Made by a program: the position numbers and the translations under genes | Assembly (NCBI GenBank): GCA_964396955.1 | Contig: CAYNGW010000001.1 | Location: 1-45,085, forward strand | Origin: an uncultured Rikenellaceae bacterium | GTDB taxonomy: Bacteria; Bacteroidota; Bacteroidia; Bacteroidales; VadinHA17 | Reading direction: 5' to 3' | DNA: 45,085 nt | Part shown: positions 3,818 to 45,085 of the stretch, one piece after another | Numbering within the stretch: the stretch's first letter is position 1 | How the letters are laid out: the number at the start of each line of letters is the position of its first letter | The notes under the pieces: generated by a model | Told to the model about the DNA's origin: nothing | The model's database searches: none | The model's input: only the letters and a program-made list of their open reading frames with translations

Positions 3818-4540
3818 CTACCTGAATAACAGCGAAATAAGAGAGATAATTATATACAATGGTATTATCAGGGTAGCTCCGGCGAGGCCAAAAACTGCCA
3901 GGGCTGCAATCACCAGTATAACAAGGATATACCGTTCTTCATTTCCCCTGAGCTTCAGATGAGCGAATTTCAAAGAGAACATTGGGATGCGGGTAACCAT
4001 AAGCAGGGAAAGTACTGTTGTGAAAATTATTATTGCCACGGTGGATCCCGCAAGACCGGCGATCAAACCGGAATCTGAATAATTCAGGGCAATAACAATC
4101 CCGACAACTGCAAGTGCATTTGCCGGGGTAGGCAGACCTTTAAATGAAGTAGCCTGGGTTTCGTCAGTGTTGAATATTGCGAGCCGCAGGCCGGCACAAA
4201 CAGGCATAATCGCCGGAGAAATGAGAATCATCACCGGAAGAAACCCATCAGCATTGATTATCATCGGAGCTGATAATGAGAGAGATGTGCCCAGAAGCTG
4301 GTAGATCAATATGGCTGGTGCCACACCGAAGCTTACAACGTCAGCAAGAGAATCGAGTTCCTTGCCAATTGGTGAATATGCTTTCAGGAGCCTTGCGGAA
4401 AAACCATCAAGAAAATCGAATATCATTGCTGCCAGGATAAGCCATGAGCCTGTTGCAAGATCTCCGTTCAGGGCATAAATAATAGCAATAAAACCGGCTG
4501 CAAGATTAAGAGAAGTAATGAAATTGGGAATATGCTTCAT
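3818..4540 (-). CDS. pssA: CDP-diacylglycerol--serine O-phosphatidyltransferase (CDP-alcohol phosphatidyltransferase family)
   Basis: Motif DGFSARLLKAYSPIGKELDSLADVVSFG matches D-G-x2-A-R-x8-G-x3-D-x3-D. The start is set at MKHIPNFITSLNLAAG (ATG at 4540). The 51 codons upstream in the ORF track look non-coding. Confidence 0.85.
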   Translation of the reverse strand: MKHIPNFITSLNLAAGFIAIIYALNGDLATGSWLILAAMIFDFLDGFSARLLKAYSPIGKELDSLADVVSFGVAPAILIYQLLGTSLSLSAPMIINADGFLPVMILISPAIMPVCAGLRLAIFNTDETQATSFKGLPTPANALAVVGIVIALNYSDSGLIAGLAGSTVAIIIFTTVLSLLMVTRIPMFSLKFAHLKLRGNEERYILVILVIAALAVFGLAGATLIIPLYIIISLISLLFR

Positions 4541-16937: not shown

Positions 16938-18113
16938 TTAAATATTGGAACCGGAGACGGGTCTTGCATAAACAACGACATCTGCCCCGGTAATTTCATC
17001 TTTGCAGAGGATAATCATCCTTTCAAGGACATTCCGGAATTCCCTTATGTTGCCTGTCCATACTATCTTCTGCAACTCCTTTAGAGCATCCGGCCTGATG
17101 GTTTTCTTACTCATTCCGTATTCCTTGCAGATTACTGAATTAAAATGGTCTGCAAGGAGCGGGATATCCTCTTCGCGTTCATTGAGGGTAGGAACATGGA
17201 TAAGAATTACGCTCAGACGGTGATACAAGTCTTCCCTGAATCCGTTCTTTTCTATTTCATGCTTGATATTCTTATTGGTGGCAGTAATAATTCTCACGTT
17301 CACCTGGATGTCCTTATCGGAGCCTACTCTTGTTATCCTGTTCTCCTGGAGGGCCCTGAGTACTTTAGCCTGGGCAGACAGGCTCATATCGCCTATCTCA
17401 TCAAGAAAAAGAGTGCCACCGTTTGCCTGTTCGAATTTGCCGATACGCTGTTTTATAGCTGAGGTAAAAGAACCTTTTTCGTGACCAAATAACTCACTCT
17501 CAATAAGTTCTGATGGAATGGCGGCACAATTGACTTCGACGAATGGTCCCTTTGCCCTGCTGCTTTTCTCGTGTATCTGATGTGCCACCAGCTCTTTCCC
17601 TGTTCCGTTTGCACCGGTGATCAGGATTCTTGCCTCGGTAGAAGCAACCCTGTCAATCATCTCCTTAACCCTCATGATAGACTCAGATTCTCCGACTATC
17701 TCATACATTTTGCTGACCTTATTCTTAAGGACCTGTGTCTGGGTAATAAGGGTTGATTTATCCGTGGCATTACGGATGGTGATCAATAGCCTGTTAAGGT
17801 CGAGAGGTTTTTCAAGAAAGTCGTAAGCTCCCTTCTTTATGGCGTCAACGGCTGTATCAATATTCCCATGGCCTGAGATCATAACAACAGGAGTGACTGT
17901 TGACATATCGGTTATCTTCTGGAGAACTTCGATACCATCCATTTTCTGCATTTTAATATCGCACAGGACAATATCATATGTGTTGGAAGAGAAAAGTTCA
18001 ATTCCAGTCGGGCCGTCTTCAGCAAGATCTACCTCATGCTTCTCGTATTCCAGAACTTCCTTAAGGGTGTTCCGGATAGCTTTTTCATCGTCTATAACTA
18101 AGATTTTTGACAT
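16938..18113 (-). CDS. sigma-54-dependent response regulator (receiver + AAA+ activator) lacking a C-terminal DNA-binding domain
   Basis: Receiver domain (ILVIDDE...VLCDIKMQKMDG...EKP). Walker A GANGTGKE, Walker B LFLDEIG, sigma-54 contact loop ELFGHEKGSFTSA, and WTGNIREFRNVLER. The protein ends about 25 aa after that motif (391 aa), so no Fis-type HTH is present. Confidence 0.88.
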   Translation of the reverse strand: MSKILVIDDEKAIRNTLKEVLEYEKHEVDLAEDGPTGIELFSSNTYDIVLCDIKMQKMDGIEVLQKITDMSTVTPVVMISGHGNIDTAVDAIKKGAYDFLEKPLDLNRLLITIRNATDKSTLITQTQVLKNKVSKMYEIVGESESIMRVKEMIDRVASTEARILITGANGTGKELVAHQIHEKSSRAKGPFVEVNCAAIPSELIESELFGHEKGSFTSAIKQRIGKFEQANGGTLFLDEIGDMSLSAQAKVLRALQENRITRVGSDKDIQVNVRIITATNKNIKHEIEKNGFREDLYHRLSVILIHVPTLNEREEDIPLLADHFNSVICKEYGMSKKTIRPDALKELQKIVWTGNIREFRNVLERMIILCKDEITGADVVVYARPVSGSNI

Positions 18114-22446: not shown

Positions 22447-22463
22447 AAGCAAATTGCTTGCCA
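22447..22463 (-). promoter_or_regulatory. sigma-54-type -24/-12 element (TGGCAAG-N4-TTGCT) embedded in a 15-nt palindrome, upstream of grpE
   Basis: The minus strand reads TGGCAAGCAATTTGCTT. This has GG-N10-GC spacing and one mismatch to TGGCACG-N4-TTGCW. It lies about 32 nt upstream of the grpE ATG and overlaps the palindrome CAAGCAA-A-TTGCTTG (22446-22460). Confidence 0.4.
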
Positions 22464-22472
22464 TGAGGCAAT

Positions 22473-22642
22473 AATTGACAAATTGACAGGAGAAAAGGCT
22501 TTACGGTGTTACGGCATTACGGCAGAAATTCAAATCTTTGGTTTTGCCTTAAAGCCCTGACACCCTAACGCCTTTACGCCCTAAAGCCCTAACGCCTTTA
22601 CGCCCTAAAGCCCTAACGCCTTTACGCCCTAAAGCCCTAAAG
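22473..22642. repeat. chain of octad arrays: AATTGACA x2, nnTTACGG x3, CCYTWAMG x12 (including three perfect 24-bp units)
   Basis: aattgaca x2 (22473-22488). ctttacgg / tgttacgg / cattacgg (22499-22522). 12 octads at 22547-22642, with ccctaacgcctttacgccctaaag repeated perfectly at 22563, 22587 and 22611. The last octad contains the murA stop codon. Confidence 0.9.
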
Positions 22643-42635: not shown

Positions 42636-42733
42636 GTCCTGCAGGTCTTGCCAGTCCTGCCAGTCTTGCATGTCATTTAACCCGAGAGGACCTGCACGAC
42701 CTGCATGACCTGCATGACTTGCATGACAATCTC
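42636..42733. repeat. two nonamer arrays (GTCYTGCMn x4-5 and GACYTGCAY x4-5) filling the spacer between the convergent TPK and LuxR-type genes
   Basis: gtcctgcag / gtcttgcca / gtcctgcca / gtcttgcat / gtcatttaa, then cccgagag, then gacctgcac / gacctgcat / gacctgcat / gacttgcat / gacaatctc. It starts 4 nt after the TPK stop and runs into the LuxR-type stop codon. Confidence 0.85.
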
Positions 42734-43664
42734 ACTGCTTGGTTTCTTCTTTTACCAGGGTTATCAGCTGCACCCTGCTCCTGACATTAGTTTTAATATA
42801 TATCCTGTGAGTATGATCCTTCACAGTCTGCAGGCTGATAAATAGCTTGTCTGCTATCTCTTTATTGCTGAGCCCATTGCAGATCTCCCGCACGATATCC
42901 GTTTCACGTGGCGATACATCAAATTTTCTGCAGAATTCCTCAAATGACAGTTCCTTCCCCGGTTCCGTGGTAAATGCAGACATCAGCGTACCGTAAGTGA
43001 AATAGACCGGGAGAAATGCATTGCCGGTAAAGAATGTCAGGATAAAGAGCAGGGCTATATAAACAGATATTGTATAGAAAAAAAGAGGAATGCATTGTAA
43101 AAGCATTACAGTTAAGATAGCTGTAGCAATTATCCTCCTGTCATACGCGTGAATGAATGACTTTCCCTTCTTTGGAAATATTATCAGGATTGAAGCAAAA
43201 GAGGAATAGATAAAATTCATGCCGATAAAATAGTAACGTATCAGGTCTTCAGGTTCAATTGATTTTTCTTCGGCGACATAATAGCCTAAAGTGATTATTA
43301 TCGCGAAATTGACAAGAAGGAACCAAAGAAAGTGCCAGTTATTATACTTTCTTCCTGAAATTTCTCCTGAGAACCTGATGAGCATAAGCCAGGCAAAAAC
43401 CAGAAAGGGAAATCCAAGAAGAAGGGAGATATTGGTAAAGCGTTCAATCAGGTTTGAATCTATATAGGGAGAGAGAAAAGCTTTAATGATCACCTGACCC
43501 CAGATTCCATAAAATCCGAATGTAAAGATGAAAACCAGGAAATACAGCAGAGATGAGAAAATTTCACTCCTGTACCTGTTCCTCAGCCGTGATGCCAGGA
43601 CCACGCTTCCAGCGGCCAGAGCTACCGATAAGAAAAAAACCAGCCAAACCAGATATTTGAGCAT
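42732..43664 (-). CDS. membrane-embedded LuxR/GerE-type transcription regulator (about 7 TM helices plus a C-terminal HTH)
   Basis: The N-terminal ~230 aa are almost entirely hydrophobic helices. The C-terminus is SPRETDIVREICNGLSNKEIADKLFISLQTVKDHTHRIYIKTNVRSRVQL, a LuxR-type HTH. Confidence 0.75.
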   Translation of the reverse strand: MLKYLVWLVFFLSVALAAGSVVLASRLRNRYRSEIFSSLLYFLVFIFTFGFYGIWGQVIIKAFLSPYIDSNLIERFTNISLLLGFPFLVFAWLMLIRFSGEISGRKYNNWHFLWFLLVNFAIIITLGYYVAEEKSIEPEDLIRYYFIGMNFIYSSFASILIIFPKKGKSFIHAYDRRIIATAILTVMLLQCIPLFFYTISVYIALLFILTFFTGNAFLPVYFTYGTLMSAFTTEPGKELSFEEFCRKFDVSPRETDIVREICNGLSNKEIADKLFISLQTVKDHTHRIYIKTNVRSRVQLITLVKEETKQ

Positions 43665-43876: not shown

Positions 43877-44623
43877 ATGGAAACAAGTAATGAGTACAAA
43901 TTGAAACCAACATTTGGCAACAGCTTTGGTACAGGATGGAGAGTAATGACAGATAACTTTATCAGACTGCTTCTGATAGTTATTATCCTGGCTATAGTGA
44001 CGGGTCCCTCGACAATAGTGAATTTTAATTTCGATAAAAATGATCTTCACAGGGTGCCATGGGAATGGACAAGAAATATAGACGGTATTATAAACTGGGC
44101 TTCAATAGGCATGATGGCAGCGTTCTTCGGACTTATTGCCCTGCTGTTCACTTTCTTTGTTGTACCTGTATTTGAATACGGGGCTGATATGACCTTTGTT
44201 CAGGCTGTAAGGAAAATCAAACCTGATTTTGAACTGCTTATAAGAGGCTTCTGGCAGAATTACCTTCATATTGTCCTGGCGAATCTGCTGGTGTCGGCAC
44301 TCGTAATACTGGGATGCTTTGCCCTGATCATACCTGGAATAATTATCGGCTGCCGGCTGGTTTTTGTATCATATATAGTGATGGACAAAAGGCTCGATCC
44401 CATTGAAGCTGTTGAATTAAGCTGGAAACTTACAAGGGGGCATGGATGGAGGATCTTCGCAATGGGATTTGTATCATGTTTCATCCTGCTATTCGGGCTA
44501 ATATTTTTTATAGTAGGTATATTCCCTGCAATAATGTGGGTTTCAAGTTCCTTTGCAACTCTTTATCAGTCAGTACTTAACGAAAAGGAAAAACCTGCAG
44601 AGCAACCGGTACTGGCACAATAA
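43877..44623 (+). CDS. hypothetical integral membrane protein
   Basis: 248 aa with 5-6 TM helices. The general look resembles DUF975/YciC-like membrane proteins (AVELSWKLTRGHGWRIF), but the family is not securely recognised. Confidence 0.5.
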   Translation: METSNEYKLKPTFGNSFGTGWRVMTDNFIRLLLIVIILAIVTGPSTIVNFNFDKNDLHRVPWEWTRNIDGIINWASIGMMAAFFGLIALLFTFFVVPVFEYGADMTFVQAVRKIKPDFELLIRGFWQNYLHIVLANLLVSALVILGCFALIIPGIIIGCRLVFVSYIVMDKRLDPIEAVELSWKLTRGHGWRIFAMGFVSCFILLFGLIFFIVGIFPAIMWVSSSFATLYQSVLNEKEKPAEQPVLAQ

Positions 44624-44656
44624 CGGCATTCAGTTTTCTTTCTTAATATGTTTTCT

Positions 44657-44690
44657 CCTGCCGCGGGCTTTGCCCCGGCAGGTTTTTTTT
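44657..44690 (+). terminator. rho-independent terminator
   Basis: CCTGCCGCGGG / CCCCGGCAGG stem (10 bp with one bulge), a 5-nt loop, then T8. It lies 34 nt after the stop at 44623. Confidence 0.8.
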
Positions 44691-44791
44691 ATTTAAATTG
44701 TATAACTTTATAGCCTGGTTGTTCAAAAAGATACATCCGACTTCCCTTTGATTACATACTGAAAAAATAAAGCCATCACAGATTCTGTATT

Positions 44792-44807
44792 TGGCACGCT
44801 GTTTGCA
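44792..44807 (+). promoter_or_regulatory. sigma-54 (RpoN) promoter, perfect -24/-12 consensus
   Basis: TGGCACGCTGTTTGCA matches TGGCACG-N4-TTGCW with no mismatch. It is intergenic, after a terminator, and 52 nt upstream of the ATG at 44860. Confidence 0.7.
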
Positions 44808-44859
44808 AAAAACTGAAAATTCAATACCTTTATAGTTTATTTTATAAATACTTTAAAAC

Positions 44860-45085
44860 ATGAAGACGAGGACAATATTATTAACGATTGTACTGATTTT
44901 TGCTTTACCTGCACTTTCCGATGCTCAGGTAGGTAATCTGCTGAAGAACAAGGTGGGCAAAGCAATTAATGCCGGAGTTAAAGTACTTGATAAAGAGGCG
45001 GACAAGAAAATTGATTCAGCTGCCACCAGGGAAGCTCAGAAGGCATATGATAAAGCAGAGAAGGACAGAGCTGAACAAGAGGCAG
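44860..45085 (+). CDS. secreted Lys/Ala/Glu-rich protein, 3' end cut by the window edge
   Basis: ATG at 44860, signal peptide MKTRTILLTIVLIFALPALSDAQ, then a charged helical-looking sequence. The frame is open to the end of the window. It is absent from the ORF track because no stop is reached. Confidence 0.55.
   Translation, partial: MKTRTILLTIVLIFALPALSDAQVGNLLKNKVGKAINAGVKVLDKEADKKIDSAATREAQKAYDKAEKDRAEQEA

Follow-up and report, generated by a model that had tools for sequence, protein, structure and literature searches.

Does a sequence that reads as a perfect sigma-54 promoter, lying just ahead of a gene that runs off the end of its contig, drive that gene, and would it do so alone? The question arises at the right-hand end of a contig from an uncultured Bacteroidales metagenome-assembled genome (MAG), here called G000, which we analyzed along its whole length of 45,085 nt and refer to as the window. 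The original prediction, made from the sequence letters, had placed the promoter at 44792–44807 on the forward strand, upstream of a truncated gene for a secreted protein.

Match, geometry and genomic rank of the sigma-54 element

The element, TGGCACGCTGTTTGCA, agrees with the pattern TGGCACG-N4-TTGCW at 12 of 12 specified positions, as claimed, and within TGGCAC-N5-TTGCW its GG and GC dinucleotides are spaced 10 nt apart. The window has no other exact match to TGGCACG-N4-TTGCW, and the same single match is all that the 2,231,089-base assembly contains. The chance expectation of 0.005 offered with the prediction was fair: recomputed from a G+C content of 42%, it comes to ~0.007 per window, and the same base composition leads one to expect ~0.33 exact matches per genome. 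A lone exact match per genome is by itself unremarkable and not compelling.

The geometry described earlier was borne out as well. Between the end of the upstream ORF (44623) and the ATG of the target gene (44860) lies a spacer of 236 nt, 52 nt of which separate the motif from the ATG; the motif is intergenic, lies on the same strand as the target gene and stands 3' of a terminator. Counting 12 nt onward from the -12 C, sigma-54-dependent transcription would be predicted to start at ~44818. A scan of the genome with a position-specific matrix, trained on five G000 sites (those of dnaK, grpE, lon, thioredoxin and a small heat-shock protein, sHSP) and with the target excluded, gave the element 20.2 bits, rank 5 among ~4.5 million positions. 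This made it the top intergenic match outside the training set, and it outscored two of the five training sites themselves. The features of the locus and the related sites are collected in Table 1.

Table 1. Coordinates of the target locus and of related sigma-54-type sites in G000 (positions without a contig name refer to the window)
Feature	Location	Strand	Basis or remark
Response-regulator-type sigma-54 activator, REC + AAA+, GSFTSA loop	16938..18113	-	Pfam
grpE sigma-54-type site TGGCAAGCAATTTGCT	22448-22463	-	
Upstream gene, 248-aa membrane protein, weakly DUF975-like	43877..44623	+	ORF; Pfam
Intrinsic terminator of upstream gene	44657..44690	+	Hairpin 44657-44682, then U8 44683-44690
Distal TAACTTTA box, surviving sigma-A -7 box of deleted gene X	44703..44710	+	G056 alignment
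Scar of deleted gene X	44715..44770	+	Comparison with G056 and G085
Sigma-54 -24/-12 element TGGCACGCTGTTTGCA	44792-44807	+	GG 44793-44794, GC 44805-44806; matrix rank, half-site conservation
TTTG, -33 box of overlapping Bacteroidota sigma-A promoter	44802..44805	+	19 nt from -7 box
TACCTTTA, sigma-A -7 box (consensus TAnnTTTG)	44825..44832	+	35 nt 5' of ATG
Target gene, first 75 codons: signal peptide and start of Lys/Ala/Glu-rich disordered linker	44860..45085	+	
dnaK sigma-54-type site TGGCATAAGGATTGCA	C159:4102		
lon sigma-54-type site TGGCACAAAGATTGCA	C82:5699		
Thioredoxin sigma-54-type site TGGCATAATGGTTGCT	C201:2162		
Small heat-shock gene sigma-54-type site TGGAACAGAACTTGCC	C228:259		

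The target gene encodes an exported protein, probably of the DUF4412 family

The gene downstream of the motif had been described as coding for an uncharacterised Lys/Ala/Glu-rich secreted protein that continues beyond the window. The export signal and the linker are both present, with a signal peptide of ~22 aa (MKTRTILLTIVLIFALPALSDA, followed by Q) at the start of the ORF. The ORF indeed runs off contig C1, which the window covers from end to end. Full-length orthologues end in a DUF4412, LolA-like domain. The rest of the target gene was not found in the G000 assembly, and two scans of metagenome contigs for exact patterns from the promoter region returned no match. Relatives of the gene come from MAGs of uncultured Bacteroidales from fens and soils. 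Orthologues were recovered from 93 of 120 genomes of the genus and, where full-length, measure ~305–340 aa. The 339-aa protein of genome G056 begins with a sequence that shares 89% identity with the 75 residues available from the window.

The orthologues share a layout in which the signal peptide is followed by a ~90-residue disordered stretch rich in Lys, Ala, Glu and Gln and then by a beta domain of ~215 residues. The G056 orthologue matches DUF4412 (PF14371) with 28.0 bits against a cut-off of 21.6, with only part of the profile aligned; the family was matched by 4 of 13 aligned orthologues, one of the unmatched proteins being P0001, and the residues encoded in the window end before the domain begins. 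A structural model of the G009 orthologue has pLDDT values of mostly ~80–95 over residues 110–327, with two loop dips. Foldseek searches with this model returned VioE, EPDR1 and MucB at E values of ~1e-4 to 1e-3 and modest target-normalised TM scores of 0.31–0.53, and the modelled fold is an open beta-barrel or half-barrel of the LolA/VioE/ependymin/RseB kind. On this modelled similarity, the target is an exported, probably periplasmic protein of a ligand- or lipid-binding type.

The point at which the gene is cut recurs elsewhere. Contig C397 of the independent assembly of a sister species and closest relative (G085) ends at ~codon 75 of the same gene, like the window at 45085. The shared break falls in a low-complexity region (AEQEAAQAKEADQGEQGEQ in G056), and it probably lies there for that reason, as a break caused by repeats or microdiversity.

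A sigma-A promoter overlaps the sigma-54 motif

The reading of the spacer as containing a sigma-54 motif stood, but an overlapping sigma-A promoter had been overlooked. In Bacteroidota, sigma-A promoters reportedly consist of a TTTG at -33 and a TAnnTTTG at -7. The -7 consensus is restated in a study of Flavobacterium psychrophilum (PMC9723704). The target promoter resembles this type in its arrangement TTTG-N19-TACCTTTA and in the distance of 35 nt between the -7 box and the ATG, and departs from it in the last letter of that box, an A instead of the consensus G. With respect to the ATG its two boxes lie at -58 and -35, which are the modal places in G000. Between -40 and -21 of G000 start codons, TAnnTTTG is ~11-fold and TAnnTTTA ~4-fold enriched, and the composite TTTG-N19-21-TAnnTTT[GA] is most frequent between -60 and -51 from ATGs, the gene calls behind these statistics being crude longest-ORF calls. 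The -33 TTTG doubles as half to most of the sigma-54 -12 element, and the two promoters share positions 44802–44806. A sigma-A start would be predicted at ~44838 ± 3.

We compared this arrangement across 79 non-redundant orthologous upstream regions, bearing in mind that the orthologues are kin and that counts across them are not independent. A TAAyTTTA box occurs at about -33 ± 3 from the start codon in nearly all of them, and many, as read by eye, carry TTTG or TTG 19–24 nt 5' of this -7 box; among those that also bear the sigma-54 motif, the spacing from the -33 to the -7 box is 19–22 nt. With a -7 box kept by almost all orthologues, the target gene is unlikely to depend on sigma-54 alone. 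No TAnnTTTG-type box was seen at the corresponding place in dnaK promoters of the genus (sequences from 30 genomes), and the box therefore belongs to the target gene and not to sigma-54 promoters generally. On the same observation we rejected the notion that sigma-54 promoters in general carry TAACTTTA downstream.

The long spacer records the deletion of a gene

The terminator noted in the original prediction is a strong one: its hairpin folds at -21.4 kcal/mol (z = -4.5), and none of 200 shuffled sequences folded as well. A simple pattern scanner for sigma-70 promoters and terminators overlooked it owing to a one-base bulge in the hairpin; the same scanner is uninformative for Bacteroidota promoters. 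The gene that the terminator closes encodes a membrane protein scoring 26.5 bits against the Pfam family DUF975, under the cut-off, and is a syntenic neighbour of the target in many relatives (among them G009, G022, G106 and G061).

Alignment with relatives explains the remaining DNA. In G056 and G085, a gene that we call X, coding for a 342-aa CarbopepD_reg_2 protein, stands between the membrane-protein gene and the target; it is intact in G056 (L016, 367–1395), where its product matches PF13715 with 55 bits. The window is almost identical to G056 over 44600–44713, a segment that spans the terminator and the gene X -7 box, and G056 carries the same TAACTTTA-type box directly 5' of the gene X ATG. 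Beyond that segment G000 retains a scar, in which the ATG of gene X has become CTG (44715–44717) and a few 5' codons are joined to the last ~10 codons (..LPFDYILKK), with the stop at 44768–44770. No orthologue of gene X was found elsewhere in G000. The spacer is thus long because gene X was deleted and not because an enhancer sits there, and its length says nothing about an enhancer. The relic TAACTTTA promoter of gene X, judging from its preserved box, may still fire toward the target gene and so provide read-in transcription.

RpoN, its activators and the sigma-54 regulon of the genome

The expectation that the organism has an RpoN regulon was confirmed: G000 contains rpoN (C6:19031–20458, 475 aa, PF04552 at 177 bits), three sigma-54 activators and recognisable sites before chaperone genes. 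The activators, which match PF00158 with 225–240 bits and have a loop of the GAFTGA type, are encoded on C1 (loop motif GSFTSA), C22 (GAFTDA) and C160 (GSFTGA). The first is the activator in the window already mentioned in the original prediction. Its Pfam domains are REC, Sigma54_activat and AAA_lid; HTH_8 is missing, and with it a DNA-binding domain. By its domain composition it may be a candidate activator of the target promoter, one that needs no enhancer site. Matches with E ≤ 1e-60 were found in all 120 other genus genomes searched, and most of the best matches listed are full-length and 81–96% identical, a conservation that is unusually strong for a regulator. This ubiquity meant that linking the motif to the activator by co-occurrence yielded no signal across those 120 genomes. 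The C22 activator is NtrC-like. The third (C160:1587–2828, forward strand) is receiver-less and of a PspF-like build, with its AAA+ domain starting at residue 13, a long acidic linker and an HTH_8 domain, and is a candidate for the chaperone promoters. The window also encodes, at 42732–43664 on the reverse strand, a 310-aa protein whose N-terminal part crosses the membrane several times and is fused to a LuxR/GerE HTH domain (58.7 bits), and which by these features is a membrane-anchored one-component regulator.

A relaxed pattern, TGGYAY-N5-TTGCW, has 13 matches in G000, six of them intergenic against an intergenic share of ~11% of the DNA; all three intergenic matches with a callable downstream gene point toward that gene. 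The dnaK site is present in all 30 genus genomes inspected, with variable flanks. Within it (G000 C159:4102–4117 and L102–L131), a 16-nt sequence, TGGCATAATCATTGC followed by A or T, is invariant in most of the 30, the nominal spacer included, and in 7–8 of them the -12 C is replaced (TTGAT, TTGTT, GTGTA). An invariant spacer (AATCA) is unusual for sigma-54 sites and may reflect a second protein that reads the sequence.

The heat-shock sites share a further trait, in that words of the TGTCAT or TGTCAA type lie 16–35 nt upstream of them (C228 ~160–258; window 22464–22500, reverse strand; C159 ~4080–4101; C201 ~2178–2260). They include a palindrome, TGTCATATTGACA, with two further copies at the sHSP gene, TTTTGTCATAAAATT at dnaK and TGTCAATTTGTCAATT at grpE, and may form an activator or accessory site. 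TGTCAT-type words are not clearly present at the target, and a search for 8-mers that recur in the 160-nt stretches preceding the target and six other sigma-54-like sites returned only AT-rich words.

The -24 half of the element is patchily conserved

Within the comparison set, 11 of the 79 promoters carry TGG-N9-TG at -67 to -71, and the other 68 lack it. The -12 dinucleotide of the 11 is GC in six (G000, the sister species G085 with TGGCTCGCTGTTTGC, G009, G002, G047 and G059), GT in four (G056, G065, G089 and one more MAG) and GA in one (G093). The sister species retains TGGCTCGCTGTTTGCA. TGGYAY can be read in 10 of the 11, and yet the spacers and flanks have fully diverged, the spacers reading GCTGT, ACGTC, GCTCT, GGCTT or GCAAT.

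We considered whether generic sigma-A promoters might favour TGGYAY 5' of their -33 box, and rejected this: none of 57 such promoters in G000 has it at the same offset. All occurrences of the -24 half fall within one 41-member clade of the protein tree, for which base composition predicts ~0.4 occurrences of TGG alone and ~0.03 of TGGYAY. The low expectation and the count of zero among generic promoters argue that the -24 half is selected and not a product of chance. Selection on it is, however, weak or lineage-specific, since the half is scattered within the clade, requires at least seven changes on the tree and differs between sister pairs: G009 reads TGGTAT where G052 has TGATAT, and G002 has TTGC where G065 has TTGT. 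In another clade of DUF4412 orthologues (L074, L075, L085 and L094), cTTTTGAACC-N13-ATATTTG takes the place of the sigma-54 half and may be the site of a different alternative sigma factor or of a regulator.

A dual promoter weighed against its alternatives

The original prediction of a sigma-54 promoter gains from rpoN, the activators, the regulon, the matrix score and the 11 motif-bearing orthologues, and has to give way on one point, the gene being unlikely to rely on sigma-54 alone. The reading that we favour, as a better than even bet, is that in G000 the sigma-54 element works side by side with the sigma-A promoter. Sigma-A polymerase would recognise the TTTG at 44802–44805 and TACCTTTA at 44825–44832 and start near 44838, giving basal expression as in every relative. 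Sigma-54 polymerase would bind the GG at 44793–44794 and the GC at 44805–44806 as a closed complex, which one of the three AAA+ activators would remodel to start near 44818; a candidate for this step is the response regulator without a DNA-binding domain encoded at 16938–18113, which would require no enhancer. The sigma-54 start would couple the target to a protein-quality and envelope stress regulon comprising dnaK, grpE-dnaJ, lon, the small HSP and thioredoxin genes. Both polymerases would compete for the shared TTTG, and one may speculate that an unactivated sigma-54 complex could dampen the sigma-A promoter.

One argument against a dual promoter is that the sigma-A promoter by itself accounts for the TTTG, which supplies half of the -12 element. 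Taken to its end, this leads to a housekeeping-only reading, in which TTTG-N19-TACCTTTA is the sole promoter, perhaps with read-in from the gene X relic, and the TGGCACG half is either a remnant without function or lies next to the -33 box by chance. The near-universal -7 box at its modal distance from the ATG fits this reading, as do the patchiness of the sigma-54 half and its decay between sister species, the failure of the enhancer search upstream of the target to turn up an activator site, and the ~0.33 exact matches that composition alone would supply per genome. It accounts poorly for TGGYAY standing at the sigma-54 offset in 10 orthologues against none of the 57 generic sigma-A promoters, and for the excess over the clade-wide expectation (~0.4 for TGG, ~0.03 for TGGYAY, in 41 members). 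Nor does it explain why the half-site was retained while the flanks diverged wholly, or why the G000 copy is a full consensus that outscores two bona fide heat-shock sites of its own genome. We regard it as unlikely, if still credible. The physical overlap of the two promoters, with 44802–44806 in common, also admits a case in which sigma-54 holoenzyme binds and is rarely or never activated, its closed complex on the -33 box mainly dampening basal transcription. Closed complexes of sigma-54 are stable and transcriptionally silent unless activated, which speaks for such occlusion, as does the lack of a detected enhancer-like site upstream of the target. Against it, every genus genome searched encodes an activator without a DNA-binding domain that could act on any closed complex, and the same motif drives chaperone genes that have no sigma-A box; we hold this outcome to be improbable.

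Sigma-54 might, finally, not be the protein involved: TTGGYAY-N4-TTTGC could be the operator of another factor, a repressor or activator overlapping the -33 box. The dnaK promoters of the genus lend this some colour through their invariant AATCA "spacer", unusual for sigma-54 and compatible with a second protein, and through the 7–8 of 30 in which the -12 C is replaced. At the target orthologues, however, the spacer varies freely, the letters that are kept coincide exactly with the -24/-12 class, GG and GC lying 10 nt apart, and the element is neither a palindrome nor a direct repeat beyond what sigma-54 sites themselves contain. Moreover, the motif class is tied to mapped transcription starts in F. 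psychrophilum, where mutagenesis confirmed it at one operon (PMC9723704). We hold an unrelated operator, too, to be improbable. Returning to the dual promoter, a bolder form of it, which we put forward as rather doubtful, is a "flickering" one. A universal activator without a DNA-binding domain would open any sigma-54 closed complex, so that a few point changes beside a -33 box could add an envelope protein to the stress regulon or remove it, repeatedly among related species; where sigma-54 stays unactivated it would block the housekeeping promoter and make a switch of a constitutive gene.

Comparison with known sigma-54 systems

In F. psychrophilum, start-site mapping placed a -24/-12 motif, SM4, before groES-groEL, lon, dnaK, grpE-dnaJ, htpG, clpB and skp (Guerin et al. 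2021, ISME Commun 1:33, PMC9723704), and it also precedes genes for exported proteins and lipoproteins of unknown function. G000 is alike in belonging to the same phylum, in the motif and in having three PF00158 activators, and its motif likewise stands before dnaK, grpE and lon, as well as before the sHSP and thioredoxin genes. The two cases differ in that the F. psychrophilum promoters rest on mapped starts, one of them validated by mutagenesis, whereas the G000 promoter is predicted from sequence, and in that a sigma-A promoter overlaps the G000 motif, which only a minority of orthologues retain. A purely computational survey of sigma-54 regulons across phyla reports that predicted sigma-54 promoters in Bacteroidota are enriched before the genes for GroEL, GroES, IbpA, GrpE, DnaJ, DnaK, HSP90, ClpB and Lon (PLoS One 2025, PMC12316311); DUF4412 or LolA-like exported proteins are not mentioned in the part consulted. 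Francke et al. 2011 (PMC3162934) do not cover heat-shock genes of Bacteroidota.

Measured against this background, the motif is real, well placed and probably functional, and is one more example of a published kind of Bacteroidota promoter. The current picture is left unchanged: that sigma-54 controls chaperone and exported-protein genes in Bacteroidota has already been published, with start-site maps (PMC9723704). If the element is functional, the regulon through which sigma-54 serves protein quality and envelope stress in Bacteroidota would gain an exported DUF4412 (LolA-like) protein. This would be a first clue to the function of a widespread but uncharacterised domain, with a possible envelope role under stress. 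The overlap with sigma-A, together with a -24 half that close relatives have lost repeatedly, illustrates how a gene can enter and leave a sigma-54 regulon.

Activators of sigma-54 without a DNA-binding domain occur elsewhere, as FlgR in Helicobacter and CtcC in Chlamydia. By analogy, the activator in the window, which likewise combines REC and AAA+ and has no HTH, could act from solution with no enhancer. It differs in being found in all genus genomes searched, whether or not the motif precedes their DUF4412 gene, and its link to the target promoter is putative.

Overlapping sigma-54 and sigma-70 promoters are said to serve the glmY and glmZ genes of Enterobacteria. That system is similar in that one gene has a sigma-54 and a housekeeping promoter on shared DNA, allowing basal plus signal-dependent expression. 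At glmY, GlrR is said to bind upstream sites, whereas none are evident at the target. The two glmY promoters reportedly overlap perfectly and use one start; at the target the overlap is between the -12 element and the -33 box, and the two starts would be expected ~20 nt apart.
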